Assembly (NCBI GenBank): GCA_965218435.1
Contig: CBDCKW010000005.1
Span: 608,001-672,000 of the forward strand
Origin: Truepera sp.
GTDB lineage: Bacteria > Deinococcota > Deinococci > Deinococcales > Trueperaceae
Direction of reading: 5' to 3'
Length of the DNA: 64,000 nucleotides
The notes beneath the pieces were generated by a model. It had not been told where the DNA came from and did not search any database. It saw nothing but the letters and a program-made list of their open reading frames with translations. The position numbers were made by a program, and so were the translations under genes. Shown one piece after another: positions 10,297-39,893 of the stretch. Positions within the stretch are counted from its first letter, which is position 1; every line of letters starts with the position of its first letter.

Positions 10297-11799
10297 ATGT
10301 CTGAACTTCTGCTAGGTATCGACGTCGGCACCACGAACGTCAAGGCGGTGCTAACGACGCCCACAGGGCGAGTTATCGCTCAGGCACAGAACGCCTATCC
10401 TACCCAGCACCCACGCCCCGGTTGGGCCGAGCAGAACCCACAAGCTTGGTGGAAGGGGCTCGTCGGAGCGGTCCGCGAGGTGCTAGCGACGTCGGCCGCG
10501 CGCCCTGAAAGGGTTACCGGCATCGGCGTAAGCGGTCAGGGGTGCGCGGTGACTCTGATCGACCAAAACGGCGAGGTCTTAAGACCCGCCATCATCTGGA
10601 TGGATAGCCGCGCCGAAAGGCAGTGTGAAACTCTGCGGGCATGTTATGCCGAAAAAATCTTGCGACGTAACGGAAAAAGCCCCGCTCCCTATAACGCCGA
10701 TCCCGTGCTCATGTGGTTGCGAAAGCACGAGCCGGAAATTCTAGACCGAGCAGCTTGCAGCCTTACCACAACTGGCTATATCAACTTCCGGCTGACGGGC
10801 GAGCCCGTGCTAAATGTCTCGGATGCCAGCATCCTCTTTGCCTTTGATCTCGAAACCGGAAACTGGTCCAACGACCTCATCGAGGCGTTCGGCCTTCCAA
10901 AACACTTGTACCCACCTGTAGCCCAAAGTCGAGAGGTGATCGGGCAACTCAGTGACAAGGTTGCTGCAGAGTTAGGACTTCGTCCTGGTACCAAGGTCGT
11001 GGCAGGGGGTGAGGACACCTCTTCGGCGGGGCTAGCGGTTGGCGTGATACGTCCAGGACAGGTGCTGCTGTCACTTGGCACCGCCGGAACCCTCTATGCG
11101 GTTCAAGATCGCATGACCGTCCACCCAGACCTTCTTACCTTTTTGCATGTACTAGAGGGTCAGTTTCTGATGGGCGGCTCGGTAGCGGCAGTGGGGGCGG
11201 CACTAGCTTGGTGCTGCAACGCTTTTGGGGGCGGGCTCGAGCCCACCGCGCTCCTCAAGCTAGCTACAGAAAGTGAGGCTGGAGCGGGTGGCCTCGTCTT
11301 CTTGCCCTACCTTAGCGGCGAACTTCAGCCTATCAATGACGGCCACGCGCGCGGTGTTTTTGTGGGAATTTCTCCCTCTACCGAAACGAAGCAAGTGGTG
11401 CGGGCGGTGCTCGAGGGCACCGCCTTCGCGCTAGCACATAACCTAAGGGTGGCGACCCAGGCTGGAGCGTCGGCAATTGAGCTGCGCGCCGTCGGCGGTC
11501 CCACCCGCAGCTCGCTCTGGTGCCAGATCATAGCCGACGTAGCCAACAAGCCTTTAAACGTGCTTGGCGACAATCCGGGCGCACCTTTAGGTAACGCGCT
11601 GCTCGCCGCCGAGGGTGTGGGGCTTATCGACCATGCCGGACGTGTGGCGGAGGGGGCAGCTATGGTATCGCGCACCTTTGAACCGCGCGCCGAACTACGC
11701 GAGCGTTACGACGGGCTTTTCGAAATATACAAGAATCTTTACCCCAGCCTAAAAGGCACCTTCGCCGACCTCGCGGCGCTTTCGGGAGGGGACCGATGA
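10297..11799 (+). CDS. FGGY-family carbohydrate kinase (xylulokinase-like)
   Basis: LLGIDVGTTNVKA, PAIIWMDSRA, FLPYLSGE, VGGPTRSSLWCQIIAD. Confidence 0.9.
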   Translation: MSELLLGIDVGTTNVKAVLTTPTGRVIAQAQNAYPTQHPRPGWAEQNPQAWWKGLVGAVREVLATSAARPERVTGIGVSGQGCAVTLIDQNGEVLRPAIIWMDSRAERQCETLRACYAEKILRRNGKSPAPYNADPVLMWLRKHEPEILDRAACSLTTTGYINFRLTGEPVLNVSDASILFAFDLETGNWSNDLIEAFGLPKHLYPPVAQSREVIGQLSDKVAAELGLRPGTKVVAGGEDTSSAGLAVGVIRPGQVLLSLGTAGTLYAVQDRMTVHPDLLTFLHVLEGQFLMGGSVAAVGAALAWCCNAFGGGLEPTALLKLATESEAGAGGLVFLPYLSGELQPINDGHARGVFVGISPSTETKQVVRAVLEGTAFALAHNLRVATQAGASAIELRAVGGPTRSSLWCQIIADVANKPLNVLGDNPGAPLGNALLAAEGVGLIDHAGRVAEGAAMVSRTFEPRAELRERYDGLFEIYKNLYPSLKGTFADLAALSGGDR

Positions 11800-12563
11800 G
11801 GCTTAAAAACAAAATCGCCCTGATTACCGGCGCAGGGCGGGGTATCGGGCGCGCTTGTGCGGAGGCGTTTGCTTGCGAGGGTGCACAGGTAGTGATTGCT
11901 GAGCTCGAGCCCGGTCTTGGTCAGGAGGTGACGCGCAGCATCCGTGAGGCGGGGGGTGAGGCGTGCTTTATCAAGGTAGATGTAGCTGTGCCCGAAGAGG
12001 TTGAGGCGGTGGTCCGTGAAACCGTTGAAATGTATGGAGGGCTCGACGTGCTCGTCAGTAACGCGGGCATCGGCGGGCGGCGTCTGGGCGACGGGCCAGT
12101 TCATGAATGCACTGTCGAAGCCTGGGACCGCGTGCTCGAGGTGAATTTACGCGGCACCTTTTTAAGTTGCAAATACGCGCTTCCTGAACTGCTCAAACGG
12201 CGGGGCAACATCGTTACCCTCTCGAGCGTGCTGGGTCTGGTCGGCACCCAAGGGCTCTACGATACCCACGCCTACGCCACGAGCAAGGCGGGCATCATCG
12301 GGCTGACGCGGGCGATGGCCGCGCACTACGCCAGAGAAGGCGTCCGCGCGAACGTCATTGCGCCGGGGCTTATCGACACGGCGATGGCAGGGCGAACAAA
12401 AGATGAGGCGGAGCGTCTCGAGCAGGTCGCCTTCTGGCAGCCTTTAGGGCCTTTGGGAGAAGTGGATGATGTAGCAGAGACAGCCGTGTTTCTCGCCAGT
12501 AATGAGGCTAAATTCATTACCGGGGCCGTCATCCCCGTTGACGGCGGCTGGACCGCGCAGTGA
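11796..12563 (+). CDS. SDR oxidoreductase (module copy 1)
   Basis: TGAGRGIG, NAG, YATSK. Shares GDGPVHE and THAYA with the SDR at 36654. Confidence 0.9.
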   Translation: MRLKNKIALITGAGRGIGRACAEAFACEGAQVVIAELEPGLGQEVTRSIREAGGEACFIKVDVAVPEEVEAVVRETVEMYGGLDVLVSNAGIGGRRLGDGPVHECTVEAWDRVLEVNLRGTFLSCKYALPELLKRRGNIVTLSSVLGLVGTQGLYDTHAYATSKAGIIGLTRAMAAHYAREGVRANVIAPGLIDTAMAGRTKDEAERLEQVAFWQPLGPLGEVDDVAETAVFLASNEAKFITGAVIPVDGGWTAQ

Positions 12564-12610
12564 TAGTTAGAAACGGGACAAGCGAGCGTAAAGCTGAGAA
12601 AGAGGGGAAG

Positions 12611-13948
12611 ATGGACGTATACACAAAAGAATTACCACTACTCTGGGACGCGGACGTCATTGTCGTGGGCTCGGGCTCAGCTGGGTCCGCGGCTGCTATC
12701 GCCGCGGCGCGTAACGGTGCCGATACGGTGCTGGTTGAACGCTTCGGCTTCCTGGGTGGGACCAGCACGCAGGTTTTGGACACCTTTTACGGCTTTTACA
12801 CCCCCGGCTCAGTGGCCTACAAGGTTGTGGGCGGCGTGCCCGACGACGTGGTGGGGGCGCTCAAAAAGCATAACGCCGCTTTCGAGCGGCCCAACACCTA
12901 CGGCGCGGGCACCGGCGTCACCTACGACCCCCTCATCCTCAAGGTGGTCTGGGAGAGGCTCGCGCAAGAGGCCGGGGTGCGGCTCCTCTACCACTCCTTT
13001 TGCACCGACGTGCTGGTGGAGGACGGCGCGATAACGGGCGTGATCGTGGACGGCAAGCGCGGGCTGATGAAGCTCACGGCGAGGGTCGTCATCGACTGTA
13101 CCGGCGACGCGGATGTGTGTGACCGGGCGGGAGCGCCCTTCGAGCGCGCGGGCGATATTGACCCGGCACAAACGCTGAGCACGACCTTCAGGATGATTAA
13201 CGTAGACATTGACGCGGCGCAAGCCTTTGGTAAAAAGTCGATGTGGGCCAAGATGGAGGAGGCGATGATAAGCGGCAACTACCGGTTGCCGCGCAAAGAA
13301 GGAAGTTGGCACATCACCACGCAGGCCGGGGTGGTCCACACCATCATGACGCGTGTGGCCGAGGTGGACGCCACCGACCCGGTTGAGCTGACGCGGGCCG
13401 AAATCACCGGGCGAGAACAGGCACTAGAGTATGCGCGCTTCCTCAAGGACTACGTGCCGGGCTATGAAGACGCCGCGCTCTCCTGGCTCTCGGACCCCAT
13501 CGGCGTGCGCGAGACGCGGCGGGTTTATGGGCGTTACCGCCTGACGCGCGAGGACTGTTTGGAGGCGCGCAAGTTTGACGACGCCATCGGCGCGTGCGGC
13601 GCGCCCATCGAGGACCACCATTCCGGCTCGGATACGAACTGGCACTACCTACCCGACGGCTTGACCTACGACATCCCCTACCGGACGCTCCTTCCTAAAA
13701 AAGTCGAAGGGCTCTTGGTCGCGGGCCGCTGCTTTAGCGCCACCCACGACGCCCACGCCTCGTGCCGCTCGATGGCGCAGACGATGACGATGGGGCAGGC
13801 CGCGGGCACGGCGGCGGCTTTGGCGGTCAAGAGTGACGTGAGGCCCGCTGAGGTGGACGTTCCCAAACTTCAGGAGCGGCTGCTCGAGATAGGTGCCAAG
13901 TTCGGCGAGATTGAGGTTGACGCGCCTCTGGTACTGGAAGAGGCCTAA
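12611..13948 (+). CDS. FAD-dependent oxidoreductase (FAD_oxidored/PF12831-like, module copy 1)
   Basis: VVGSGSAGSAAAIAAAR, DCTGDAD, GVRETRR, YDIPYRTLLP..LVAGRCFSA, MGQAAGTAAALA. Start ATG 12611 after GAGGGG. Confidence 0.88.
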   Translation: MDVYTKELPLLWDADVIVVGSGSAGSAAAIAAARNGADTVLVERFGFLGGTSTQVLDTFYGFYTPGSVAYKVVGGVPDDVVGALKKHNAAFERPNTYGAGTGVTYDPLILKVVWERLAQEAGVRLLYHSFCTDVLVEDGAITGVIVDGKRGLMKLTARVVIDCTGDADVCDRAGAPFERAGDIDPAQTLSTTFRMINVDIDAAQAFGKKSMWAKMEEAMISGNYRLPRKEGSWHITTQAGVVHTIMTRVAEVDATDPVELTRAEITGREQALEYARFLKDYVPGYEDAALSWLSDPIGVRETRRVYGRYRLTREDCLEARKFDDAIGACGAPIEDHHSGSDTNWHYLPDGLTYDIPYRTLLPKKVEGLLVAGRCFSATHDAHASCRSMAQTMTMGQAAGTAAALAVKSDVRPAEVDVPKLQERLLEIGAKFGEIEVDAPLVLEEA

Positions 13949-13950
13949 AG

Positions 13951-14949
13951 GTGCCTGTAGAGACGACGCTGGGGGCGCTCGAGCCCCACACTTTAGGTGT
14001 CATCAACGCGCACGAGCACCTCATCATCGACGGCGGCTACACCGTGCTCAAGGAGCCCGACTTTCGGCTCGACAGCGTGCCCAAGGCGGTAGAAGAACTC
14101 ATCCGTTGGCGCGACGCGGGGGGCGGGGCGATTGTAGACACTATGCCCTTCGGGAGCGGGCGCAACGTTCGCAAGCTTATCCAGATAAGCCAGGCGACGG
14201 GCGTGCCCATCGTGGTGCCCACGGGCTTCCAGAAAAGTTCTTACTACCTGCCCGACCACTGGCAGCACCGCTACGACGAGGAGGCGATTGCCGAGCTTTT
14301 GATTGCCGAATGTCGAGACGGGGTAGACGAAAACAACTATGACGGCCCGGTGGTGACGCGGAGCCCCGTCAAAACTGGCCTCATTAAAGTTGCGGGAGAT
14401 TACCAGTTCGTCAGCGAGACCACCCGCAAACTCATCCGCGCCGCCGGGCGCGCACACGGGGCGACGGGGGTACCCATCCTCGTCCATACCGAAATGGGCA
14501 CGGCGGGGCATGAGCTTCTTGACTTACTTGAGGCCGCGGGCGTCCCCCCACAACGCGTCATGCTCTGCCACGTAGACCGCAACCCGGACCTTAAAGTTCA
14601 CAAGGAACTGGCTGAACGAGGCGCGTTTTTGGAGTACGACACACCTGGCCGCATCAAATATCAACCTGAAACGGTTGTGATAAACCTTATGCGCGACATG
14701 TTCGAGGCGGGTTACGGCGGCAACCTGCTCCTTGGTGGCGATATGGCGCGGCGCTCCTACTGGACGGCCTACGGCGGAGGGCCGGGACTCGAGTACCTGC
14801 TTACCACCTTTACCCCCCGGCTGCGGGCGGAAGGGTTTTCAGAAGAAAAACTCACCCTTGTGTGGCGTGACAACCCGGCGCGCTGGCTTACCGGCTCCGC
14901 TGCCGGGAACGCGTCCGAAAGAAAGCTGCAAGAGAAAGCGGTGCGTTGA
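13951..14949 (+). CDS. Phosphotriesterase (PTE/PHP)-family amidohydrolase, likely lactonase (module copy 1)
   Basis: HEH metal motif, GLIK (carbamylated Lys position), VHTE, CHVDR, GGD. Confidence 0.88.
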   Translation: MPVETTLGALEPHTLGVINAHEHLIIDGGYTVLKEPDFRLDSVPKAVEELIRWRDAGGGAIVDTMPFGSGRNVRKLIQISQATGVPIVVPTGFQKSSYYLPDHWQHRYDEEAIAELLIAECRDGVDENNYDGPVVTRSPVKTGLIKVAGDYQFVSETTRKLIRAAGRAHGATGVPILVHTEMGTAGHELLDLLEAAGVPPQRVMLCHVDRNPDLKVHKELAERGAFLEYDTPGRIKYQPETVVINLMRDMFEAGYGGNLLLGGDMARRSYWTAYGGGPGLEYLLTTFTPRLRAEGFSEEKLTLVWRDNPARWLTGSAAGNASERKLQEKAVR

Positions 14950-14986: not shown

Positions 14987-15799
14987 ATGGACTTGACCTT
15001 CCCCCACCACCTCGACCGCATCAAAGAAGGCGTACTTGCCCAAAAGGAAACGCTTCAAAAGGTCGCCGCCGCTTTTGCCGACGCTATTGAAGACGGCGGT
15101 TTAGTCCACGTCTACGCCAACGGCCACTCGCGCGTGGCGGTTGAGGAGTGGGTGGTACGGATGGGCGCGCTTACCGGCTTTCACCCTATCCTTACTTCGG
15201 GTCTTGTAACTTTTACTGATGTAGTGGGGCCCAACGGCATACGTCTTAACCAAACGGTCGAGAAGGTTGAAGGTTTGGGGGCTAAGCTACTAGACGAGTT
15301 TGACGTAGGTCCCCGCGACGCCTTTGTGGCGGTGTCGGCCACGGGCACGACCGTGGCAGCGGTAGACGTCGCGTTAGAGTTCAACCGCCGCTACCCTGAG
15401 CATCCTCTTGTCGCCGTCACCTCAGAGATTCAGGCTAGGGACGCTCCACCCAAACACAGCTCCGGCAAAAATCTCTACCACGTCGTCCGCGAGGCCAAGC
15501 GCGGCTTCTTGCTCGATAACTGTATGCCGCTGGGCGACGTGTCGGTCACGGTTGAAGGTCAGGAGGCAACGTATCAGGTTTGCCCTTTATCTAACATCGG
15601 CGCGCTGACGCTCGTGCAGTCATTAAACGAACTCACGCTACGCGAGCTTGACCGGCGCGGGGTAAAGCATCACGTGCTACAAAACATGCACCTGCACGAT
15701 ACCGAGGATACTTATGACACTTGGCTACGCGACCAGCGCAAGAGATACTCGAGGGCACTTCATTATCCTCAGCGGGTAATGCCAAAAGGTAAGGAGTAA
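14987..15799 (+). CDS. SIS-domain sugar isomerase-like protein (UPF0309-like, module copy 1)
   Basis: GGLVHVYANGHSR, GFHPI, SATG, DNC..GD. Start ATG 14987 after AAAGGA. Confidence 0.8.
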   Translation: MDLTFPHHLDRIKEGVLAQKETLQKVAAAFADAIEDGGLVHVYANGHSRVAVEEWVVRMGALTGFHPILTSGLVTFTDVVGPNGIRLNQTVEKVEGLGAKLLDEFDVGPRDAFVAVSATGTTVAAVDVALEFNRRYPEHPLVAVTSEIQARDAPPKHSSGKNLYHVVREAKRGFLLDNCMPLGDVSVTVEGQEATYQVCPLSNIGALTLVQSLNELTLRELDRRGVKHHVLQNMHLHDTEDTYDTWLRDQRKRYSRALHYPQRVMPKGKE

Positions 15800-16776: not shown

Positions 16777-17835
16777 TTAAGGCTCGCCCCGCAACGTCGC
16801 TTGGACTTGTGCTCTTTCCGCTAGCGCCATACGCCACTGACCGATAGCCACAGCGACAATCAGCAGTAACCCCTTGGCAACCAGTTGATAAAAAGTGGGA
16901 ATGCCGAGCAAGTTCATACCGTTACTCATCGTTGCTAACAGTAAAACAGCGAGCATACTGCCTGCTACCGTTCCCTTACCCCCTGCTAGCAGCGCACCAC
17001 CAAGGAACACCGCCGTGATGGCCTCGAGCTCGAGCCCTTGCGTACCCGAGACAGGCTGACCCGAACTTGTTCGCGCAGTGACGATCACACCCGCAAGACC
17101 TGAGAGAGCCCCTGAAACAGAGTAGATATAGAGCTTCATTCGGTTTAAGTTGATGCCTACTAAACGGGCAGCTTCAGGATTGCCCCCCATCGAATAAAGT
17201 GACCGACCAAAAACCGTTGACTTCATAACAAAATGCGCAACAAGGGCGACGACGACTAAAATCACAAAAGCGATAGGAATACCTGGAAAAGACCCGACTT
17301 GGAACAGCCGCCCTGACCCTAGCCGAGCAAAGGTCGGATCCAAGACGCCGATAGGCCGACCTCCTGGCGCTATCAAAAAAGCTAGACCTTGAAAGGCTGA
17401 AAGTGTCGCTAACGTGGCGACTACCGGATTGACGCGCAGATACGTGATGATAAGTGCGTTTATAACCCCGAGCACTGCCCCTGCTAGGATTCCCAACGCC
17501 ACGCCGCCAAAGACGGTACCCACCACTGATACCATAAGGGCCGAAACAACTGACGCCACACCTGCAATGGAACCCACTGAAATATCGAGTCCCGCTGACA
17601 CGATAACCATCGTCATACCTACCGCGATAAGTCCCACGACGGCCATATTTTGACCAATATTTAAGAGGTTACGGGTACTAAAAAAAAAGGGCGTTTGACT
17701 GGCAATAAGAGTGACCAAGACAACTAAAGCGATAATAAGTGAGAGGTTCTCCGCACCCAAAAAGTCACTTAGCCGTTTCAAAAAATTAGGTTTGCGTTTG
17801 GCTTGAGAGGTAACCTCAGCTGAACCAGTTGACAT
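16777..17835 (-). CDS. Monosaccharide ABC transporter permease (RbsC/AraH-like)
   Basis: GLDISVGS, GGNPEAARLVGI, LELEAITAVFLGG. Confidence 0.92.
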   Translation of the reverse strand: MSTGSAEVTSQAKRKPNFLKRLSDFLGAENLSLIIALVVLVTLIASQTPFFFSTRNLLNIGQNMAVVGLIAVGMTMVIVSAGLDISVGSIAGVASVVSALMVSVVGTVFGGVALGILAGAVLGVINALIITYLRVNPVVATLATLSAFQGLAFLIAPGGRPIGVLDPTFARLGSGRLFQVGSFPGIPIAFVILVVVALVAHFVMKSTVFGRSLYSMGGNPEAARLVGINLNRMKLYIYSVSGALSGLAGVIVTARTSSGQPVSGTQGLELEAITAVFLGGALLAGGKGTVAGSMLAVLLLATMSNGMNLLGIPTFYQLVAKGLLLIVAVAIGQWRMALAERAQVQATLRGEP

Positions 17836-17878
17836 GGTAAGCGTCCTTTAAGAAATGAGCTGTAGCGTAGTCTTACGC

Positions 17879-19378
17879 TTAAGCTGCCTTTTGCTCGAGA
17901 GCGAGTGTAAGGATAAGTTCTTCGGTAGCAGCAGATTTTTCAATAGGTTCGGTAATAGTACCGTTTCTCATAACGATGATGCGGTCGGCCATACTGAGCA
18001 GTTCCGGCATTTCGGAAGAAATGAGCATAATGGCGATGCCACTTTTTGCTAAGTCGTCAATCAATCGGTAGATTTCGGCCTTGGCACCGACGTCTACGGC
18101 GCGCGTCGGCTCATCTAAAATCAGGACTTTAGGCTTAGCCGCGAGCCACCGTGCCAATACCACTTTTTGCTGATTACCACCGGAAAGTTTGCCAACGTCT
18201 TGCTCGAGCGAGGGTGTTTTGATGTCGAGATAGCGAATATAGGGTGAGACCTCGTCGACCATCTTCTGGGTGCGAAGAACCCCCACACGGCTGAGAGCGG
18301 AATAAACGGCCATCGAAGCGTTCTCAATAACGCTTCGTACCAAAATGAGCCCCTCTCTTTTCCGGTCTTCGGGTGCAAACCCGAGGTTGACTGCGATCGC
18401 CTCGGCGGGGGACGTGACGGCCACGAGTCTCCCCTCAACCCTGACGTCCCCAGAGCGTTTCGGCAACGCGCCGAAAAGAACCTTGGCTAACTCGGTTCTG
18501 CCTGCACCAACGAGACCCGCGAAACCAAGAATTTCACCCTTACGGATTTTGAAGCTGACGTCGTGGTGCCAGCGGCTATTTAGGTGAGTGACCTCGAGCG
18601 CAATTTCGTCGCGAGAAACCTCAGCACGTTGAACCCCCCCAGACAAATCACGCCCAACCATCATGTGGACAATCTCGCGGCTTTGGGTATCGCTCGTCGT
18701 TCGCACACCGACTAGCCGACCATCTCTTAAGATACAAATCCGATCCGAAACTGCCATAATCTCGTGCAAGCGGTGTGACACATACACTACGCCAAGACCC
18801 TGTGAGCGCAAAAGTGCGATCAGGGTGAATAGCCTTTTCGTTTCGTCTGCTGTCAAAGATGAGGTAGGTTCATCAAAGGCGATGACCTTGACGCCGTCTT
18901 TTAAAGCGCGGACGATCTCGACAATATGTTTCTGAGCAGGAGACAACGACGAGCCCAAAGCGTCCGGGGCGACGAAGCCTGAAAATCCGTAAGTGGCAAG
19001 TATCGCAGCTGTCTTTTTACGCATCGTCTCAAAATCTACTCGGTAGTTTTTGGTTGGATACTCGCCGACAAAAACATTTTCGGCTACAGATACGTGGGGC
19101 ACGATTTCGGGTTCCTGACGCACGAGCCGAAAACCCGCTTGGCGCGCCTCGAGCGGGCTGGCGCGGCTGATGTCGGTACCGTCTAGCATAATCGTGCCTT
19201 CATCGAGCCGGTAGTCGCCACTCAAAATCTTAAGGAGGGTCGATTTACCCGCACCATTTTCACCTACAAAAGCCATAACCTCACCGGCGCGCACCTCCAT
19301 AGCGAGGTCAGAAAGAGCTCTGATATTTGGAAAAGATTTGCTGACCCCTTTTATAGACAACAGCGTTCGGTTTAACAC
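17879..19378 (-). CDS. Monosaccharide ABC transporter ATP-binding protein (two NBDs, AraG-like)
   Basis: GENGAGKST, DEPT, LSGGNQQK. Confidence 0.93.
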   Translation of the reverse strand: MLNRTLLSIKGVSKSFPNIRALSDLAMEVRAGEVMAFVGENGAGKSTLLKILSGDYRLDEGTIMLDGTDISRASPLEARQAGFRLVRQEPEIVPHVSVAENVFVGEYPTKNYRVDFETMRKKTAAILATYGFSGFVAPDALGSSLSPAQKHIVEIVRALKDGVKVIAFDEPTSSLTADETKRLFTLIALLRSQGLGVVYVSHRLHEIMAVSDRICILRDGRLVGVRTTSDTQSREIVHMMVGRDLSGGVQRAEVSRDEIALEVTHLNSRWHHDVSFKIRKGEILGFAGLVGAGRTELAKVLFGALPKRSGDVRVEGRLVAVTSPAEAIAVNLGFAPEDRKREGLILVRSVIENASMAVYSALSRVGVLRTQKMVDEVSPYIRYLDIKTPSLEQDVGKLSGGNQQKVVLARWLAAKPKVLILDEPTRAVDVGAKAEIYRLIDDLAKSGIAIMLISSEMPELLSMADRIIVMRNGTITEPIEKSAATEELILTLALEQKAA

Positions 19379-19462
19379 AAGAACCTCGTTTTCAGTAACG
19401 CTCGTGGAGTGGGCAGGCTAACCGAATATACTTGCGGCTACCCACTCCTTTAAGGCTATTGT

Positions 19463-20446
19463 TTAGTCGCAGGTCATCACGTCAGCATAGTTTGAGGGAT
19501 CCACGATTGTGGTATTGGCAACAGTACTAGGTGGTAACGGTTTACCCGTCTCAATAGCGTTGATAAGCGCCCGTGCCGCTGCGTCGCCCACGTCTGTACC
19601 GCTGATGTAAAGTGCGGCCTTGAACCCTGTGGCGATGCCTGCTTTCCAGGGGCGGCACGCTTCGTAAGCGCCCAGTCCCACGGCAATAACGTCATCAGCT
19701 GTAAAACCTGCGTTGTTCAGCGCGTTTACTGTGCCTAAAACGCCTTCGTCGTTGCAACCAAAAACTACCCATTTGTTGACATCTGGATGGGCGGTAACAA
19801 CAGGTCCAGCAGCTTCTAGAGCAGCGTTGGTCGTTCCGTCATACGCAACCGCGTAGATGTTGTCGGGACTAGCACCCGCCTTGATGACCTGTTGTTTCTC
19901 CGCCTCAGTTCGGTCGTTACAAACAGAAAGTGTTTGAACCTCAGCGCTTAGAACACCGTAATTTTCGTTCTCGACCCAACCAGCTTCTGTAAGTAGTTCA
20001 CCGGCTTTGGTGCCTACTTTGGTGCCCATATCCGTCCCGTTAAAGCCAACGAAGGGAACCGGTTTGCCAGCACCGTCGACCAAAGGATCATCAGTGGCTA
20101 CTAACAGCACACTTGCGTCGGCAGTCGCTTTCGCAGCTGCCGGGCCGATCGCTTGATCCGGCGCTGTGAGGCCGATGCCTTTCGCACCTGCAGCGATGGC
20201 GTCGCTGATGGCGCTGATAGCAAGGTTGGCATCGAGTTCTACGTTGATAATTTGAGAAGTGTAACCGAGTTCTTTTGCTGCGGCTTGGAAACCTTGAGCT
20301 TGATCGATAAAATACTGTTGCGTCCCGCTTTTATAGATGGCAACGACCAGCTTTTCCTGAGCAAATGCCGCGCTAAACAAGTACAATGCGACGAGGCCGA
20401 CAACGACCAACCCGGACATACGAACCGCTCGAGCTACCTTCTGCAC
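19463..20446 (-). CDS. Monosaccharide ABC substrate-binding protein (arabinose/galactose-binding-like)
   Basis: Signal peptide ending AFAQ, periplasmic-binding-protein type I pattern, GCNDEGVLG. Confidence 0.8.
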   Translation of the reverse strand: MQKVARAVRMSGLVVVGLVALYLFSAAFAQEKLVVAIYKSGTQQYFIDQAQGFQAAAKELGYTSQIINVELDANLAISAISDAIAAGAKGIGLTAPDQAIGPAAAKATADASVLLVATDDPLVDGAGKPVPFVGFNGTDMGTKVGTKAGELLTEAGWVENENYGVLSAEVQTLSVCNDRTEAEKQQVIKAGASPDNIYAVAYDGTTNAALEAAGPVVTAHPDVNKWVVFGCNDEGVLGTVNALNNAGFTADDVIAVGLGAYEACRPWKAGIATGFKAALYISGTDVGDAAARALINAIETGKPLPPSTVANTTIVDPSNYADVMTCD

Positions 20447-22667: not shown

Positions 22668-22710
22668 TAACGACCGCCCAACGGGTTTGCGCAAACATGA
22701 GCAGCGTGCA

Positions 22711-24673: not shown

Positions 24674-24676
24674 CTC

Positions 24677-32760: not shown

Positions 32761-33981
32761 CTACCGTGCTGACCACTTATCTCGAACATCTTGAGAAACG
32801 ATACGCTGAACAATGGTTCCGCTCGCTTTCTCTTTAAGAATGACTTTTGCCGTGCCATCTGGCATGTGTTCTTGTTTGATGAGCCAGTGAGCGTCGTCGT
32901 ACTCTTTGAGCCCGTCGCCGCGGCTTTGATTACTCGAGCCGCGCCAATCCAGTTTGACCTCGGCCCACTGTTTTGTTCGAGCGGACTCGTAGGCCGCATC
33001 CATGATGGCGTTGACCACATAGCCGTCGTAAAAATCTTCCCTCGGGCGGCGCTGTTCATCCAAGGCGTCGAGCATATCAGTGAACATCTCATCGTAGCCA
33101 AGCGCCGCGCCCTCGTCGCCGATCGGAAAAAGCCAACCCTTGTTGGTCTCGGCCTTTTCGGCGACGTAGTCGCCGCCAACGCCGGTGGTGAACATCTCGA
33201 AGCCTGTGCGTAGCCAGTGGTTGTTCCAGAGGGTGCCTTCGGTGCCCGAGACCTCGTCGCGGAGGTCCATGCCTCCCCTAAATGTCCAGCTAACCTCGAA
33301 CTGGCCGACCGCGCCGTTAGCGTAGCGCACCAAGCCCACTGCGCTATCTTCGGCATCGATGGGGTGTACTTGAGTGTCAGCCCAACACATGACTTCTACC
33401 GGTTTGACATCTTTGCCGATGTAGTTGCGACTGATCTCAATGCAGTGACACCCCAAATCGATGATAGCCCCGCCACCGGAAATCTGTTTGTCCCAAAACC
33501 AATCGCTGTGGGGGCCAGGATGCGTCTCGCGCGAGCGTGCCCAGAGCACTCTACCGAGTGCGCCGCCACGAACGGCTTGCAGCGCTTTGAGCGTTTTGGG
33601 GGGGTAGCAGAGGTCCTCGAGGTAGCCGTGAAGCACGCCAGCCTTTTCAACGATATCGAGCATGGCTTTGGCTTCGGCGGCGGTGCGCCCAAGGGGTTTG
33701 GTGCACAACACGGCCTTGCCCGCGGTGGCAGCCAGTTCGACAGCTTCTAAGTGCAGGTTGTTGGGCAGCCCGATCACCACCACATCGGTGTCGGGATGGT
33801 TGATAGCTTCAGCCATGTCGGTTGTAACCTGCGGGATGTTCCAATCCTTTGCAAAGGCGTTCGCCCGCTCGGCAGTCCGTGAGTACACGACTTCGACGCG
33901 GTCGCGGCTGCGGCCTTTGTGTAAGGTCATAGTGTAGAACATACCGATAAGCCCCGTGCCCAACATCGTAATTTTATGCAT
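32761..33981 (-). CDS. Gfo/Idh/MocA-family oxidoreductase
   Basis: GTGLIG, PNNLH, CTKPL (variant of EKP), [11 protein letters not shown]. Start ATG 33981 overlaps the ROK stop. Confidence 0.88.
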
Positions 33982-34954
33982 TGACTTCTCCCTTACGTTG
34001 CGCCGCGTAGAGGGCGGCGCCCACAACGCCCGGCTGCTCAAGTTTGGCAACTTTGAGGTCGGGTAAACAGTCACCGGCGACCTTCAAGTGCTGTTGCCAG
34101 GTCTTTCTGATTACTGGAAACAGCAGGTCGCTCGCGCCGGACAGCCCGCCCCCAAAAACGGTACATTGGGGCGCCAGAAGCGTCACAATATTAGCAGTGA
34201 CGATTCCGAGGTAGAAGCCGACGTGCGCAAACGCTTCTTGACACGATGGGTCGCCTGCTCGAGCGGCATGCGCAACGTTTTCTGCGCTGACTGCGTTTAA
34301 ATCTCCACCCGTCAGTGCAAACAAGACGGGGCTACGCCCGTGCAAATAAGGGCGCGTCACGCTGGCGACGAGCGCTGGCGCAGAGGCGACCGTCTCGAGA
34401 CACCCGACGCTGCCGCAGCCGCACCGCGCACCGCGTGGCTCGACGATGTGATGCCCGATTTCACCAGCAAGCCCCCCCTTGCCGAAGTGTAGCCTGCCGC
34501 TCAACACCAGGCCACCGCCCACTCCAGTCCCCACGACTATGCCGAACACGTCTTGGTAGCTCTGGCCCTCGCCAAACGTACTCTCGGCGAGGGCAAAGGC
34601 CCGGGCATCGTTGATGAGGCTTGTGCGCACACCTGTTTCTCGTTCCAAATATTCGCTCAGCGCAAAGCCGAACCAGCCACCTGCAAAGTTGGGCATCACG
34701 AGGGTGCAGCTTTTAGACTGATCGAGGGTAGCGGGAACGCCGACCCCTATGGAAGTAACGCCCAACTCGTCTCGCTCGGCCGCCGTACGCACTCTCGCCA
34801 CTGCCTCGAGGACATCTTCAAGAACGTCCTCCCGTGGCCGGTGAGAGTGCGTGGGAAAGCTCGAGACGTGGTGCAAAGCATCGCCCACTAACAGGCCGAT
34901 CTTGGTATTGGTGCCGCCCAAGTCGATACCGATGCTGGCTGTAGCTCTTTGCAA
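33974..34954 (-). CDS. ROK-family sugar kinase (module copy 2 kinase)
   Basis: [33 protein letters not shown]. No N-terminal HTH. Confidence 0.9.
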
Positions 34955-35001
34955 AACGTTTCCTCGGTCATTCTCTATATCTGTTCAGAAGCCCAGGTGT
35001 T

Positions 35002-35031
35002 ACTATAATGGTACGGACCACCTGATGTCCA
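35002..35031. promoter_or_regulatory. Divergent promoter with operator TGGTACGGACCA (35009-35020)
   Basis: Minus strand TGGACA-18-TATAGT toward ROK. Plus strand TATAAT at 35004 toward GntR. The same operator occurs at 47450 and 57948. Confidence 0.8.
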
Positions 35032-35828
35032 GTGCTTTGAAGGAAAGTAGGTTAAAGGATGTGACCGATTTGCCGCGACTAGACAGTGACACCGACATCC
35101 CCCTCTACCAACAGCTCAAAGATTGGATGCTTGAGCGTATCCACGCCGACAGCTTTGACCCTAGGACAGCTTTGCCTTCCGAGCGCGCCCTTGGTGCGGC
35201 GCTCAACGTGTCGCGCTCGACGGTGCGACAAGCCATCGGCGACTTGGAACGCGAGGGTTGGGTAGTGCGGCAGCGTGGGCGCGGTACCTTTGTCAACGAA
35301 GCCAAAGTCGAGCAGCCAGCCGGCCAGGTCAGCAGCTTTTCTGAAAATATGCACCGTGCTGGCCTGACACCCTCTTCGGTGGTCGTTTCATTGTGCCTCT
35401 CCGATCCCGAGGAGCACTTGGCGCGTGTTATGCAGCTTGCACCAGGTCAGCCTGTGGCGGTGATAGAACGTATCCGCTACGCAGGTGGCGAACCGTTAAT
35501 GCTCGAGAGAAGTCACTTGAACTACCACTTCGTGCCAGGGATTTTGAACCGTGACTTGTCGAAATCCCTGTACGTTCTGCTCAAAGAGCACTACGGGCTG
35601 TGCCTCAGTGAGGGCGAGGAAAGTTTGGAAGTGACCGAGGCCGACCTGGCGTTGAGCCGCCAACTCGGTATCGCCCAGGGCACCGCAGTTCTTTATACCG
35701 AGCGTCTCGTCAGGGACGACACAGGCAATCCACTGGAGTTTGCGCAGCGTTACGCGCGTGCAGACAAGTGTAGGTTCCGTGTGGCGCTGACTGGTGAAAA
35801 CGCCGACTTTGCGCTCAAAGCTTCGTGA
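35025..35828 (+). CDS. GntR/HutC-family regulator with UTRA domain
   Basis: PLYQQLK, LPSER..VSRSTVRQA, RGRGTFV, SFSE, SLY, YARAD. Start 35025 or GTG 35061. Confidence 0.9.
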   Translation: MSSALKESRLKDVTDLPRLDSDTDIPLYQQLKDWMLERIHADSFDPRTALPSERALGAALNVSRSTVRQAIGDLEREGWVVRQRGRGTFVNEAKVEQPAGQVSSFSENMHRAGLTPSSVVVSLCLSDPEEHLARVMQLAPGQPVAVIERIRYAGGEPLMLERSHLNYHFVPGILNRDLSKSLYVLLKEHYGLCLSEGEESLEVTEADLALSRQLGIAQGTAVLYTERLVRDDTGNPLEFAQRYARADKCRFRVALTGENADFALKAS

Positions 35829-35881
35829 GCTTGGCGGAGAGTGCGGCAGCCGAAACGCAGACGACTTGAAGAGGGGAAAGA

Positions 35882-36664
35882 ATGAATCAACAAGACTTAG
35901 CTACCGAGTACTTAGAGAAAGCGGCGCACATCGTTCAAAATATTCGCAAAACCCAACTCGGCGCTATTCGTGACGCCGCTAAGCTCTGTACGGACAGCAT
36001 TGCCCGGGGGGGGCTCGTCCACCTTTTCGGCAATGGGCATTCACGCATCGCGGTTGAAGAGATGTGGCCCCGCTACGGCAGTTTCCCGGGCTTCCATCCT
36101 ATCGTCGAACTGTCCATGACCAATCATACGCAAGTCGTCGGTGCGAACGGGCAGCGGCAAGCCATGTGGATCGAGCGGCAAGAAGGTCTGGGCCACGTTA
36201 TTTTACGCAACTTCGTGTTTCGCGCCTACGACACCATGATGATCTTTTCGACCTCGGGCAACAACGGTGTGGTGGTCGACGTGGCCTTAGGCGCCAAAGA
36301 GCGCGGTCTGAAGGTGGTTTCAGTGGTGGGGCTCGAGTACGCTCGGGCCTTGGCGAGCGAGCACAGCAGCGGCGCACGCCTAATCGACGTCTCCGACATC
36401 GTGATCGACAACTGCGCCGTGCCCGGAGACGCGATGGTCGACATACCCGGGGTCGATGTACCCGTCGGCCCGGGGTCGACTATCGGCAACGCAGCGGTCG
36501 TCAACGCCATGAAGTGCCTTATCGCGGCCGACCTCGCCGCCCGGGGCCAGCCGCCCATGGTCTTGGCTGGGGCCTGGAAAATGGGCGCGGAAGCGAGCGC
36601 GAAACGCTTTGACGACGCTTACGATGAGCACCGCGAACGTGTCAAGGTCGTCTATGGCGGCTGA
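35882..36664 (+). CDS. SIS-domain protein (UPF0309-like, module copy 2)
   Basis: GGLVHLFGNGHSR, PRYGSFPGFHPI, STSGNN, IDNC..GDA, GPGST. Confidence 0.85.
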   Translation: MNQQDLATEYLEKAAHIVQNIRKTQLGAIRDAAKLCTDSIARGGLVHLFGNGHSRIAVEEMWPRYGSFPGFHPIVELSMTNHTQVVGANGQRQAMWIERQEGLGHVILRNFVFRAYDTMMIFSTSGNNGVVVDVALGAKERGLKVVSVVGLEYARALASEHSSGARLIDVSDIVIDNCAVPGDAMVDIPGVDVPVGPGSTIGNAAVVNAMKCLIAADLAARGQPPMVLAGAWKMGAEASAKRFDDAYDEHRERVKVVYGG

Positions 36665-37424
36665 CGGCCTGCTGGCGGGTAAGGCCGCCCTCATCACCGG
36701 TGCTTCGGGCATCGCCGCTGCCGCCGCCAAGCTGTTCGCTAGCGAGGGCTGCCGGCTTGCTGTCGTCGATATCTCGCGGGCTAACTTGCAAGCGCTGGAA
36801 CTGGAAGTGCCTGGCATTACCCCTTTGAACGCCGACCTTACCGAGCCAGGCGCCGCTTACGAGGTGACCCGGCAGGCATGGGCGCAGCTCGGCAGCGTCG
36901 ACGTTTTGTTCAACGTGGTGGGTATCTCGGCGCGGCGTCACGGCGACGGCCCTGTTCATGAGGCCACCGATGAAGCGTGGGACAAAGTGCTCGACACGAA
37001 CGCCAAGACCACCTTTAGCATGTGCCGTGAAACGGTCAAGATCATGCTCGAGCAAGGCGGCGGCAGCATCGTCAACACGACCTCGGTGCTGGCGTACGCG
37101 CCCAACGCCGAACACTTCGCCACGCACGCCTACGCGGCATCTAAAGGCGCAATCATCGCGCTCACCAAGTCCATGGCCTCATCGTACGCGGCGCAAAGCA
37201 TTCGTGTGAACGCCGTCGCGCCGGGGCTTATCGACACACCGATGAGTGCGAGAGCTCAGAACAACGAGAAGATCCTCGGATACATGAAAGTCAGGCAGCC
37301 CCTTACGGGCCGCTTAGGAACGGCAGGCGACGTCGCCAAAGCCGCGCTCTACCTCGCGTCCAACCTGGCGAATTTTGTCACCGGTGAAGTGATAGAGGTC
37401 GCCGGAGGTTGGAGCATAGCGTGA
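36654..37424 (+). CDS. SDR oxidoreductase (module copy 2)
   Basis: TGASGIA, GDGPVHE, THAYAASK, APGLIDT. Confidence 0.88.
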   Translation: MAADGLLAGKAALITGASGIAAAAAKLFASEGCRLAVVDISRANLQALELEVPGITPLNADLTEPGAAYEVTRQAWAQLGSVDVLFNVVGISARRHGDGPVHEATDEAWDKVLDTNAKTTFSMCRETVKIMLEQGGGSIVNTTSVLAYAPNAEHFATHAYAASKGAIIALTKSMASSYAAQSIRVNAVAPGLIDTPMSARAQNNEKILGYMKVRQPLTGRLGTAGDVAKAALYLASNLANFVTGEVIEVAGGWSIA

Positions 37425-37660
37425 ACGTCCTCAAGCTGCTCGTTGCTGCACGCGTGGTGCCTGTGCTGCGCGGCCCGCTTCCGCTGGTGGCGTTTATGCC
37501 GACAGGCGACGTCAACGTGAGCGCCCTAGCAAGCTGGGCGGCGGCTGGGGCGGTCGCCTTGGGTTTGGGCTCGAGCTTGGTAGCGGGTTACTTGGGCGAC
37601 GTGCGGCTACACGCCTGGATACTGCGCGAACGTCTCGCCGAACTGCCGAGGCAACTATGA
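37421..37660 (+). pseudogene. Internally deleted KDPG/KHG aldolase (Eda-like), 79 aa
   Basis: The N-terminal VVPVLR is joined directly to the C-terminal GPLP..FMPTG.V....W..AGAVALGLGSSL. The central region with the catalytic Glu/Lys is missing. Coupled to both neighbours (GTGA, ATGA). Confidence 0.8.
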
Positions 37661-38961
37661 GCAGAGAGCTGAAGTCGGTCAACTACAGCGCTGTGATCCC
37701 AGTCCTAGCTGCTTGCAACGTCCTCGTGGTCGGCGGCGGTTCGGCGGGCTCGGCCGCCGCCGTAGCCGCAGCGCGGACCGGGGCGCAAACGCTGCTCGTC
37801 GAGCGCTACGGTTTTCTCGGTGGCACCGGCGCAGCGGTGCTGGACACCTTTTACGGGTTCTACACACCGGGCAAAACAGAAAAAAAGGTGGTGGGTGGGA
37901 TTCCTGATGACGTGGTGGCGGGTCTGCAACGCCGGAACGTGCTCCTCAAACGGCCAAACACCTATGGGGCAGGTGCCGGTCTGACCTACGACCCCGAGAC
38001 CCTCAAAGTCGTCTGGGATGAGCTAACGCTGGCAGCAGGCGTCAAGGTTTTGTTTCATAGCTATTTTGTCGATGCTCTCAAAGTAGGGGACAAAGTACGA
38101 GGCGCGATTGTAGGTACAAAGCAAGGTCTCCAGGCCATCTACGCTGACACCGTCGTGGACGCTTCGGGCGACGCCGACGTTGCCGCGCGGGCGGGTGCGC
38201 CATTTGAAGATGCGGGTGCGCTCGGCGTCGCCCAGTCGCTGACCACCACCTTCAAAGTCATCAACGTCGACGTTGCCAAAGCCACGGCGTTTCCAAAAAA
38301 AGAGCTGTGGGCGCTCATGGCGCAGGCTGCTCAGGAAGGGTACCGGTTACCGCGCAGAGAGGGAAGTTCGCACATCACTCCTTTGGAAGGAGTGATGGTG
38401 ACCAACATGACGCGGGTGGCCGGGGTTAACGCAACCGATCCCGAGGCGTTGTCGCGCGCTGAGGCGGAGGGCCGCCGTCAAGCGCTCGAGTATATGCGCT
38501 TTTTGCGCGACCGGGTGCCTGGGTACGAGCGGGCTGAACTCGGCGGTTTGGCCGTCAACATCGGCGTAAGAGAAACGCGGCGGATTCGCGGCGACTACTG
38601 GCTCACTAAAGACGACGTGTTGGCAGCCCGCAAATTTCCCGACGCCATCGCCAAGTGCGGCGCCCCCATCGAGGACCATCATGCGGGTGGCGACACCAAG
38701 TGGGAGTATCTGCCCGACGGCGAAACCTACGATATCCCATTCCGAAGCCTGTTGCCCCAACGGGTCGACGGGCTCGTCATCGCAGGCCGGTGCCTGTCCG
38801 CCTCCCACGACGCCCACGCCTCGGTACGCTCTATCGGGCAATGTCTGGCGATGGGGCAAGCAGCAGGCTTGGCAGCCAGCCTTGCCACGAAGGGCGAGGT
38901 TCGCAATGTGAACGTCGGCACTTTGCGGGAGCGTCTGCTGGACGCAGGAGCGGTGCTGTGA
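37657..38961 (+). CDS. FAD-dependent oxidoreductase (PF12831-like, module copy 2)
   Basis: Paralog of 12611-13948: VLDTFYGFYTPG, RPNTYGAG, CGAPIEDHH, HDAHAS shared. Confidence 0.88.
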   Translation: MSRELKSVNYSAVIPVLAACNVLVVGGGSAGSAAAVAAARTGAQTLLVERYGFLGGTGAAVLDTFYGFYTPGKTEKKVVGGIPDDVVAGLQRRNVLLKRPNTYGAGAGLTYDPETLKVVWDELTLAAGVKVLFHSYFVDALKVGDKVRGAIVGTKQGLQAIYADTVVDASGDADVAARAGAPFEDAGALGVAQSLTTTFKVINVDVAKATAFPKKELWALMAQAAQEGYRLPRREGSSHITPLEGVMVTNMTRVAGVNATDPEALSRAEAEGRRQALEYMRFLRDRVPGYERAELGGLAVNIGVRETRRIRGDYWLTKDDVLAARKFPDAIAKCGAPIEDHHAGGDTKWEYLPDGETYDIPFRSLLPQRVDGLVIAGRCLSASHDAHASVRSIGQCLAMGQAAGLAASLATKGEVRNVNVGTLRERLLDAGAVL

Positions 38962-39893
38962 TTCGCACTGTTCTCGGCGACATCCACCCTGAAGCGTTAG
39001 GAGTGACTTTAAGCCACGAACATCTGTTCGGTCAGCCCCCTAGCGAGTATGCTGAGGCTGACCTGTGCCTCACGGACGAGTCTTTGGCGGCGGCCGAGCT
39101 GGGGCTGTTCAGAGCGGTAGGCGGCGGCGGCGTGGTCGAAATGAGTACCGTTGACTACGGTAGGAACGTCGGTGTGCTGCGGCGATTGTCAAAAGCGAGC
39201 GGGGTTCATATCACGGCTGCAACAGGCTTCAATAAAGCCAAGTTTGCTGACCGCTACACCGCCACTTTGAGCGAGGCCGACCTTACAGCTTGGATAGTGA
39301 CGGAGGTAGAGCAGGGTATTAGCGAGCCGCCTTGGTTTGTTGCCGGGCAGGCCAAACCCGTACCTGCTCGAGCTGGGGTTATCAAAGCGTCAACGAGCTT
39401 AAACGGCCCCACCGAAGCCGAGGAAAAAGTGATGCGGGCGGTGGCCCAGGCGCACGTGCTTACGGGCGCACCGGTCGCCACCCACACCGAAAAAGGCACG
39501 TGGGCGCTCGAGCAGGCCACTTTCTTGATCGGCCAAGGCGTGCAACCCTCCAAGCTCCTTATTGGCCACCTGGATTTCCGACCCGACCCCGCTTACCTGT
39601 CGGAAATCGCCTCGCTCGGCGTTTATCTTGGACTCGACCAGTTTTCCAAAAGCAAGTACTTGTCAGACGACGCGCGGATCGACCTCGTCCTCGAGCTGAG
39701 CGCTCGCGGTTTTGAGCGGCAACTCCTACTCTCGGGCGATTTGGCGCGAAAGACTTATTGGTGCGCCCGCGGCGGCTCCGGCTTTGCCTACCTCGTGAGC
39801 ACGATTTGGAGCCGCTTGAGCGAGGCGGGTATGACGCAGCAGCACCTCGAAAGGCTTTTTTTCAACAATCCTAGCCAGTGGTTGACGTTTTAA
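38958..39893 (+). CDS. Phosphotriesterase-family amidohydrolase (module copy 2)
   Basis: HEH, GVIK, THTE, GHLD, SGD. Start GTG 38958 overlaps the upstream stop. Confidence 0.88.
   Translation: MIRTVLGDIHPEALGVTLSHEHLFGQPPSEYAEADLCLTDESLAAAELGLFRAVGGGGVVEMSTVDYGRNVGVLRRLSKASGVHITAATGFNKAKFADRYTATLSEADLTAWIVTEVEQGISEPPWFVAGQAKPVPARAGVIKASTSLNGPTEAEEKVMRAVAQAHVLTGAPVATHTEKGTWALEQATFLIGQGVQPSKLLIGHLDFRPDPAYLSEIASLGVYLGLDQFSKSKYLSDDARIDLVLELSARGFERQLLLSGDLARKTYWCARGGSGFAYLVSTIWSRLSEAGMTQQHLERLFFNNPSQWLTF

Follow-up and report, generated by a model that had tools for sequence, protein, structure and literature searches.

A window of 64,000 nucleotides (the whole stretch of DNA analysed, positions 608,001 to 672,000 of contig CBDCKW010000005.1 from a Truepera sp., assembly GCA_965218435.1) raises the question of why one bacterium carries two operons built from the same four enzyme families, a UPF0309 protein with an SIS domain, an SDR dehydrogenase, a PF12831 flavoprotein and a PTE-like hydrolase, and what these enzymes do together. 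The contig has 685 kb and the genome 4.8 Mb. An earlier reading made from the letters of the window, here called the sequence-only reading, took the set for a conserved pathway core and not for a recent tandem duplication, and this is borne out by identities, trees, a topology test and conserved loci. Judged by sequence comparison, each operon represents an old subfamily of its own within a single conserved catabolic module, which is real, widespread and undescribed and is best filed as a variant of Entner-Doudoroff-type sugar catabolism. With a probability of roughly 0.4, we read the module as supplying an Entner-Doudoroff-type aldolase with a 2-keto-3-deoxy acid phosphate made from a neutral sugar, the SIS protein replacing Edd.

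The two operons and their counterparts in other genomes

The genes of the two operons are listed below. Gene starts were refined from translations for flavoprotein 1 (12611), SIS1 (14987), GntR (35025), SDR2 (36654) and PTE2 (38958).

10297..11799, + strand: FGGY sugar kinase of copy 1 (Pfam and profile)
11796..12563, + strand: SDR1, GDGPVHE/THAYA subfamily; N117, S144 and Y160 invariant in 52/52
12611..13948, + strand: PF12831 flavoprotein 1, FGGY-type clade (Pfam, tree), without close solved structure
13951..14949, + strand: PTE1, binuclear-metal hydrolase, predicted member of the Lmo2620/3msr phospho-lactonase group
14987..15799, + strand: SIS1, UPF0309/NagS-related, divergent subtype
33974..34954, - strand: ROK sugar kinase of copy 2 (Pfam and profile)
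35025..35828, + strand: GntR/UTRA regulator (Pfam)
35882..36664, + strand: SIS2, UPF0309, best solved relative NagS (9eol)
36654..37424, + strand: SDR2, of SDR1's subfamily
37421..37660, + strand: eda remnant with an in-frame internal deletion, catalytic middle lost
37657..38961, + strand: PF12831 flavoprotein 2, ROK-type clade (Pfam, tree)
38958..39893, + strand: PTE2, six of six metal-site residues present

Gene, Pfam and profile checks confirmed the genes of copy 1 at the places and in the order claimed for them, FGGY-SDR-flavoprotein-PTE-SIS, and the content and order of copy 2, ROK<>GntR-SIS-SDR-eda fragment-flavoprotein-PTE, were likewise as claimed. Six of the seven shared motifs quoted by the sequence-only reading match both copies as written; the SIS motif does so only with three free positions (GGLVH...NGHSR).

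Pairwise identities and trees, proposed as a check, place the copies in different old subfamilies. Identity between copies is 61% for the flavoproteins, 42% for the SDRs, 34% for the SIS proteins and 33% for the PTEs, and DNA similarity is confined to the flavoprotein genes (65-70%). Quick trees were used for the flavoproteins. On a tree of 74 rows (5 of 76 full-length candidates excluded from the alignment, 3 outgroups added), flavoprotein 1 falls among sequences from Chloroflexota and Acidobacteriota, most of them accompanied by FGGY kinases, and flavoprotein 2 among ROK-accompanied sequences from Deinococcota and Alphaproteobacteria. Recent tandem duplication was rejected, the approximately unbiased (AU) test against joining the two flavoproteins giving p=4.6e-8 (33 rows). 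The 4.8-Mb genome holds no further SIS or PTE of these families and no further close flavoprotein. Both copy types are also retained together in another genome (G079), and a Persicobacter plasmid retains two module versions; because subfamilies, kinases and transporters differ as well, it is plausible that each copy is tuned to a different substrate.

Genome neighbourhoods, the other check proposed, were taken from a scan for flavoprotein relatives that matched 474 stretches; the best 80 of these are the loci counted here, and the 50 among them with at least 6 kb on both flanks are called full. Related genomes are not independent, so that the counts overstate the number of events. SIS, PTE and SDR do recur beside the flavoprotein in other genomes: PTE was found near it in 65 of the 80 loci, SIS in 57, SDR in 56, ROK in 23, FGGY in 22, Eda in 12 and creatininase in 6. 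SIS and SDR together with PTE or creatininase occur in 47/80 loci and in 32/50 full loci. A control of 22 hand-picked loci of other PF12831 genes (28-40% identity; 4 cut short) gave no SIS, PTE or SDR match (0/22), by which chance clustering of common families was rejected. All ten loci of a Deinococcota clade set, three of them the same DNA as loci among the 80, hold SIS and PTE.

By record labels, the full core is found in nine phyla (Deinococcota, Chloroflexota, Acidobacteriota, Rhodothermota, Pseudomonadota, Actinomycetota, Planctomycetota, Bacillota and Bacteroidota), a sugar catabolic module kept in soil, hot-spring, freshwater and marine bacteria. Its cultured, non-pathogenic carriers include Deinococcus aetherius, Calidithermus chliarophilus, Persicobacter psychrovividus and Paenibacillus hodogayensis. 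Four loci labelled Klebsiella or Pleurocapsa (L016, L037, L071, L076) have flavoproteins that group with Chloroflexota; their labels are doubtful and they were excluded from the phylum count. The flavoprotein clade is patchy, exceeding 500 bits in 24/301 genomes of the phylum and in 0/5 further congeneric genomes, with scoring of five candidates in each genome. The statement that no named pathway has this gene set stands, in that searches on the set and on its families turned up no such pathway in the literature covered, which omits most subscription papers.

Two positions of the module are exchangeable. The kinase of the 50 full loci is ROK in 17 and FGGY in 17, and the hydrolase is PTE in 40 and a creatininase-family protein in 6; neither pair occurs together (0 each). 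The creatininase-family gene stands directly after the flavoprotein or Eda and was found in Chloroflexota, Paenibacillus and Persicobacter, and one locus (L005) has an Amidohydro_2 gene in the hydrolase slot. A UlaG-like MBL protein was rejected as a clean PTE substitute, co-occurring with PTE in 4/6 loci, and a pyridoxal phosphate (PLP) dehydratase as an SIS substitute, being seen in one locus only; a PLP DSD1-like gene occurs in a single module locus (L019) and not in this genome. Flavoprotein fusions amount to two long proteins, possibly read-through, and were not used.

A metagenome scan centred on SIS matched the SIS part in 67/80 loci. In the 31 loci of at least 6 kb, many of them closely related, SDR was found 25 times, ROK 23, DeoC 20, Eda 10, flavoprotein 8 and PTE 6, the last two limited by contig ends. 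ROK-SIS fusions make up 59 of the 120 long SIS2 relatives among the matches listed (153 found), which places SIS directly after the kinase. Flavoprotein and PTE remain together even in loci without SIS and SDR.

The SIS protein in the proposed place of a dehydratase

The sequence-only reading expected phosphorylation, isomerisation, oxidation, ring opening and aldol cleavage, and held that UPF0309 and PF12831 proteins mostly lack assigned reactions. For this PF12831 clade no reaction was found in print; UPF0309, on the other hand, has one characterised member, NagS (SCO4393) of the Streptomycetaceae. The accessible part of its paper describes it as an N-acetylglucosamine 6-phosphate (GlcNAc-6P) dehydratase that removes O3, with H53, R64, E94 and D179 essential and S91 and N228 assisting, and leaves the role of UPF0309 proteins outside Streptomyces open (PMC12680351).

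NagS (9eol) is the best solved relative of SIS2 (TM score 0.81-0.85, 31% identity), as compared with a TM score of 0.56 for the isomerase GmhA. Both SIS proteins exceed the UPF0309 cut-off (NF002805/PRK02947, 135 bits) with 149.7 bits for SIS1 and 270.1 for SIS2, and SIS2 stays well below that for GmhA phosphoheptose isomerase (NF001628, 33.7 against 265 bits). The four essential NagS residues are kept in 60/60 module SIS proteins, and the phosphate serine equivalent to S119 is also present. The position of Ser91 is M, Q, F or L in 60/60 and that of Asn228 is H, Y, W, V or F in 56/60. The criteria given for a true NagS are at least 58.7% identity, Streptomycetaceae and a dmdR1 neighbour (PMC12680351, same part), and SIS2, at 31% and with differing neighbours, lies outside this group. 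NagS and the module SIS thus share family (UPF0309/SIS_2), fold, the four essential residues and phosphate serines; they differ in that NagS belongs to a toxicity and signalling route beside dmdR1, and the module SIS sits in a catabolic operon without dmdR1, where it would probably act directly on the kinase product.

Forty chosen neighbourhoods of Bacillota UPF0309 genes contain a NagA-type amidohydrolase in 8, GH84 in 5, AgaS-like sets in 5 and NagB in 3. The family leans to N-acylhexosamine phosphates, and the module subfamily appears to have an altered sugar pocket, since Ser91 and Asn228 are replaced, unlike in the Bacillota relatives in amino-sugar operons. Because of these changes and the single hydrolase per locus, a neutral rather than an N-acetyl sugar is the likely substrate of the module.

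The same evidence bears on a route in which SIS would dehydrate an N-acylhexosamine 6-phosphate to a chromogen-I-type phosphate, followed by oxidation to an unsaturated lactone and by opening and deacylation through PTE or creatininase, giving ammonia and 2-keto-3-deoxy-6-phosphogluconate (KDPG) as a phosphorylated counterpart of the Ong pathway. The first step would be the NagS reaction itself, the Bacillota UPF0309 genes sit in amino-sugar operons, and GntR/UTRA regulators, creatininase amidohydrolases and a YdjC deacetylase (L078) would fit, as would the joint presence of PTE and creatininase in 4/4 loci with a phosphotransferase system (PTS). Module loci, however, never hold both hydrolases (0/50), their SIS has other residues at Ser91 and Asn228 than either NagS or the Bacillota relatives, copy 1 is accompanied by an AraF-like binding protein and epimerase-like genes, and no NagA-type gene recurs among module neighbours. 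We regard this route as clearly unlikely.

The PTS-type operons (L150, L167, L180, L197, all Bacillota) combine PTS, PTE, creatininase and UPF0309 SIS without oxidoreductases and could take up a lactone as such. Two UPF0309 genes each are found in many loci of Bacillota (L179, L183, L186, L187, L190, L191, L195), and a single operon in L069 has two different SIS subtypes and two SDRs, which suggests distinct reactions within the family. Among module-type SIS proteins, one family (P0215, P0232; one member named from Verrucomicrobiota) has a long low-complexity tail rich in R, E and G.

Eda requires a 2-keto-3-deoxy acid phosphate. Further to the counts given above, it occurs in 5/10 Deinococcota loci and in the D. 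aetherius and Persicobacter operons, and the Eda of L007 exceeds the TIGR01182 cut-off. The eda fragment claimed for copy 2 is real: a repeated LRG marks the in-frame junction of Eda residues 6-23 and 147-200, one sequencing-run contig (possibly the window's own source) spans the stretch without differences, and five loci (L002, L007, L023, L025, L116) have an intact eda at this place. No IlvD/Edd-family gene was found in any module locus, and a scan of 49 unassigned open reading frames of 19 Eda loci turned up a single gene of the enolase family, in L025 and several kb upstream. Edd exceeds the TIGR01196 cut-off in 0/5 module genomes (at least 96% complete) and in 2/14 of a control; this genome has one IlvD-family gene. 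A Listeria operon joins UPF0309 SIS and PTE with the unrelated KDGP aldolase family. DeoC, seen in 20/31 SIS-centred loci, cleaves the decarboxylated form of the 2-keto-3-deoxy skeleton.

SIS is a candidate for the dehydratase because it is the only core enzyme with precedent for elimination at C3 and because Eda is present without Edd. Elimination is more likely than isomerisation as its reaction, given the NagS dehydratase as nearest solved relative and a KDPG aldolase in operons without an Edd-family dehydratase. Of the steps expected by the sequence-only reading, all but isomerisation, which is not established, are in keeping with the enzyme families. The proposed order would be:

(1) import of the sugar by an ATP-binding cassette (ABC) transporter
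(2) phosphorylation by the ROK or FGGY kinase, presumably to a sugar 6-phosphate
(3) predicted elimination of the C3 substituent (water, or an O-substituent, e.g. as methanol) by the NagS-like SIS, giving a 3-deoxy-hexos-2-ulose 6-phosphate
(4) predicted oxidation of C1 to the lactone by the PF12831 flavoprotein; the SDR (NAD-type) would prepare the sugar upstream or perform this oxidation instead
(5) predicted opening of the lactone ring by PTE, or by a creatininase-family protein in its place
(6) cleavage to pyruvate and glyceraldehyde 3-phosphate by Eda, for which two intact eda genes elsewhere in this genome would serve

The Entner-Doudoroff pathway (Zwf, Pgl, Edd, Eda) would share the end, a KDPG-type cleavage after C1 oxidation and lactone opening; the module differs by having no Zwf, Pgl or Edd, by its predicted flavoprotein or SDR oxidation and by an SIS dehydration that would precede the oxidation. 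The Salmonella Dga glucosaminate pathway likewise leads from a modified sugar to KDPG without Edd. Nearest among the described routes of this kind is the Ong pathway for GlcNAc1A, with OngB deacetylase, OngC deaminase and KdgK acting on the unphosphorylated acid (accessible part of PMC9537276); its enzymes, compared by description, differ from those of the module.

Several findings weigh against the proposed route, with SIS in the place of Edd. NagS homologs at 26-36% identity did not dehydrate GlcNAc-6P (PMC12680351, same part). The four NagS residues are also kept by 46 Bacillota-type relatives (E94 in 41) and are not diagnostic of elimination, and two positions, E60 and R64, have aligned counterparts in the isomerase GmhA. 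Only 7/50 full loci have Eda nearby, and in this window copy 2 has a broken eda and copy 1 none; the KDGP aldolase is found in only 1/4 PTS-type loci. A Chloroflexota plasmid lacks flavoprotein and PTE yet has ROK, GntR, Gfo, AP_endonuc_2 and DeoC; DeoC may therefore belong to a separate branch. Two alphaproteobacterial genomes (G303, G304; completeness not given) have flavoprotein, PTE and FGGY, and neither SIS nor SDR of the module clades was found in them. The genome-wide dehydratase search was limited to Edd/IlvD, enolase- and UxuA-type enzymes not being searched, and a galactonate dehydratase beside the copy 1 transporter could dehydrate here, though it is present in 1/80 other loci only. 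One oxidation is required, two oxidoreductases are conserved, and the SDR is without a firm role. Among fold matches of the flavoprotein model, FixC (Z 21.8 over 315 aligned residues, rmsd 4.8) and geranylgeranyl reductase (Z 21.5 over 295, rmsd 3.9) come first but are level with many others, so that the fold gives no reaction.

Some of these points would suit a route that keeps the isomerisation and so stays close to the sequence-only reading. The SDR would convert a polyol to a ketose, the kinase would phosphorylate it, SIS would form an aldose phosphate as GmhA does, and the flavoprotein would make a lactone for PTE to open, with a dehydratase or dehydrogenase encoded elsewhere; or the sugar would already be 3-deoxy and one oxidoreductase would make the 2-keto group. 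Every core enzyme has a role here. FGGY1 narrowly passes the xylulokinase cut-off (386.5 vs 380.25 bits), the ROK, FGGY and PfkB kinases each include ketose kinases, SIS has the GmhA fold with the GmhA-aligned E60 and R64 kept, a 40%-identical Polaromonas flavoprotein is paired with an IlvD-family dehydratase, and zwf and transketolase lie downstream of the Paenibacillus locus. Against this, Eda lies inside many operons and an Edd-family dehydratase in none, the tested genomes being without Edd, and SIS is far closer to NagS than to GmhA by the TM scores given above. We consider this route rather unlikely.

Proposed oxidation and ring opening, and the substrate

The flavoproteins match PF12831 (FAD_oxidored, cut-off 27) over the full length with 394 and 370 bits, and the model is confident (pLDDT 90.9). 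Searches by sequence, profile, Foldseek and VIA gave no close structure, only the general FAD fold, and the protein atlas holds unnamed PF12831 clusters only. A GxRExRR motif is present, and D57-Y60, R93-N95 and E230-H234 are conserved specifically in the clade. Fold and motif are shared with other PF12831 flavoproteins, a family to which E. coli IbeA presumably belongs; the module clade differs by its own residues and gene context. IbeA is reported, in the part of the source available, to bind FAD without an assigned reaction.

The catalytic N-S-Y of the SDR is intact throughout. An acidic residue after beta-2, by rule a mark of NAD use in SDRs, is present in 41/52 and suggests that the module SDR uses NAD.

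PTE profiles match 3pnz (E 5e-104) and 3msr (4e-84) best. The binuclear metal site (H,H,K,H,H,D) is invariant in 66/66, and K233 and Y234 (65/66) and R264 (66/66), presumably phosphate-binding, are shared with 3pnz. Lmo2620 (3pnz) and the Mycoplasma enzyme (3msr/3ovg) are thus the best solved relatives of the module PTEs, alike in metal site and K-Y...R residues, and the Listeria gene of Lmo2620 also has UPF0309 SIS and a KDPG-type aldolase as neighbours; Xiang and co-workers are said to have found, in 2012, the lactonase substrates of these two enzymes. The group differs in its PTS, the module having ABC transporter, kinase and two oxidoreductases, and with 190 and 157 bits the PTEs are below the cut-off of phospho-furanose lactonase NF045706 (630 bits).

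The exchange of PTE for a cyclic-amide-hydrolase family points to another possibility, a flavoprotein that removes a substituent. It would cleave an ether or amine oxidatively, or oxidise an anhydro- or imino-sugar ring to a lactone or lactam, the SDR would make or adjust a carbonyl, and PTE or creatininase would open the cyclic ester or amide. Fold neighbours of the flavoprotein include amine oxidases and GidA, and the two Gfo proteins and the AP_endonuc_2 barrel resemble 3-keto-glycoside and anhydro-sugar pathways as we know them. Methyl-handling genes recur with the copy 2 type, MetE-like in 8/80 and MtaA-like in 7/80, never together, and RACo lies downstream of two of them (L043, L051). 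Such genes were not found in this genome, and the 3-deoxy product would be unexplained unless SIS eliminates; we hold this possibility to be very doubtful.

Within our preferred reading, in which SIS eliminates, a bolder version can be formed. A NagS/MurQ-like SIS would strip a C3 ether without oxygen, as methanol from a 3-O-methyl sugar phosphate, PF12831 would oxidise the 3-deoxyosone phosphate to a lactone, and creatininase-family proteins would be lactonases in some lineages, together a widespread Edd-free Entner-Doudoroff entry. We find this quite improbable; if true, this large flavoprotein clade would have its first reaction and the UPF0309 proteins a role in catabolism.

An O-methyl sugar is a weak hint for copy 2. 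MocD and MocE have a demethylase role. A binding protein of the copy 2 regulon has a 66% ortholog in Rhizobium etli flanked by MocD-like, MocE and PanB-like genes. This operon (L286:9496-15768: MocD-like oxygenase, MocE ferredoxin, PanB-like hydroxymethyltransferase, ABC importer) resembles an O-demethylation unit for a sugar or cyclitol. The mocDEF genes belong to rhizopine catabolism (accessible part of PMC5789663). Three closer orthologs of the binding protein (75-80%) lack this context, and the present genome lacks these genes, so that the O-methyl substrate stays a hint. No close solved relatives of the copy 2 binding proteins were found, so structure gives no ligand. A Thermotoga-type inositol pathway is below cut-off for both IolM (215 vs 450 bits) and IolN (49 vs 245).

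The companions of the copy 1 type, an AraF-like binding protein, epimerase-like and glycosidase-like genes, make a neutral glycan-derived sugar the likely substrate of copy 1. The enzyme set is small enough for the oxidation target of this PF12831 clade and the role of UPF0309 outside Streptomyces to be tested, and the predicted operator with the three binding proteins offers a direct route to the identity of the substrate.

Extent and surroundings of the operons

Features around the core genes are listed below.

6942..8123, + strand: DUF4432 protein, aldose-1-epimerase-like (Pfam), upstream gene of copy 1
8120..10291, + strand: 723-aa protein without Pfam match; orthologs adjoin the module in L035, L044, L064 and L113
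15826..16623, - strand: DeoR-family regulator, copy 1 type (Pfam)
16777..20446, - strand: ABC importer (permease, ATPase, binding protein); binding protein nearest to L-arabinose-binding AraF
32761..33981, - strand: Gfo/Idh/MocA dehydrogenase, nearest solved relatives 6nor and 6a3f
35006..35023, unstranded: predicted GntR operator, core TGGTACGGACCA, over the gntR -10 box and within a ROK promoter-like site
39981..43359, + strand: ABC ATPase and two permeases without own binding protein (Pfam)
43353..47415, - strand: second ABC importer (binding protein 46480-47415, permease, ATPase) and M24 peptidase-like gene (Pfam)
47447..47464, unstranded: second predicted operator, upstream of binding protein 46480-47415
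52161..57883, + strand: accessory genes (Zn-dehydrogenase, two SDRs, LacI, Gfo dehydrogenase, AP_endonuc_2 barrel)
57945..57962, unstranded: third predicted operator
57994..59028, + strand: sugar-binding protein; orthologs adjoin ABC genes of the 39981-43359 type in L046, L049 and L068

For copy 2 the claimed genes (33974-39893) hold and the size does not, since operators and orthologous accessory genes reach 59028. The palindrome TGGTAC(A/G)NACCA occurs at 22 sites in loci of other genomes, and a weight matrix from these sites ranks 35006, 47447 and 57945 as the top three of the 4.8-Mb genome. They precede gntR/ROK and two sugar-binding-protein genes. Other copy-2-type loci hold 48-84% orthologs of the genes in between (second ABC importer, Zn-dehydrogenase, SDR, Gfo, AP_endonuc_2); orthologs of the accessory genes flank such loci, and the binding protein at 46480-47415 has 66-84% orthologs in 8 module loci. 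Because of these conserved sites and genes, copy 2 likely spans about 32.8-59.0 kb, broken up by insertion sequences, and the sugar-binding protein at 57994..59028 is the likely partner of the ABC genes at 39981-43359. A fourth, weaker operator-like site lies on the main contig (G000:C9:947506, score 19.1), and a scan for promoters and terminators gave counts no higher than chance.

The Gfo protein at 32761..33981 has levoglucosan dehydrogenase as best NCBIfam match, below cut-off, and orthologs above 40% in 13/80 loci. The SDR at 54026-54694 is without its N-terminal Rossmann part (Pfam match from profile position 85) and is probably truncated. Insertion-sequence remnants lie at 47894-51392, inside the copy 2 regulon, and at 30505-30882; they include a 676-aa frame joining two transposase types (47894-51392), a split DDE_Tnp_4 transposase and a DDE_3 fragment. 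PhyH-family dioxygenase genes stand beside each copy (5561-6400 and 31392-32228) and were rejected as part of the module, forming no recurring cluster among the 80 loci.

Around copy 1, the DUF4432 gene is in the same operon in L113 and in a D. aetherius plasmid record, DeoR orthologs adjoin the module in 13/80 loci, and orthologs of the ABC binding protein occur in 7/80. Upstream of the transporter on the same strand, 20542-23730 holds the galactonate dehydratase (20542-21717, above its profile cut-off), an epimerase-like gene with orthologs adjoining the copy-1-type loci L042, L045 and L069, and a Pfam-less 339-aa gene. Among look-alikes of the 723-aa protein, 13-31% of the members carry GH127/GH76 families, which is no more than a lead. 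Large Pfam-poor proteins accompany other copy-1-type operons as well (L026:10843-13215, L143:8060-9706), one weakly GH31-like and one of 548 aa without family, and are candidate new glycosidases or lyases.

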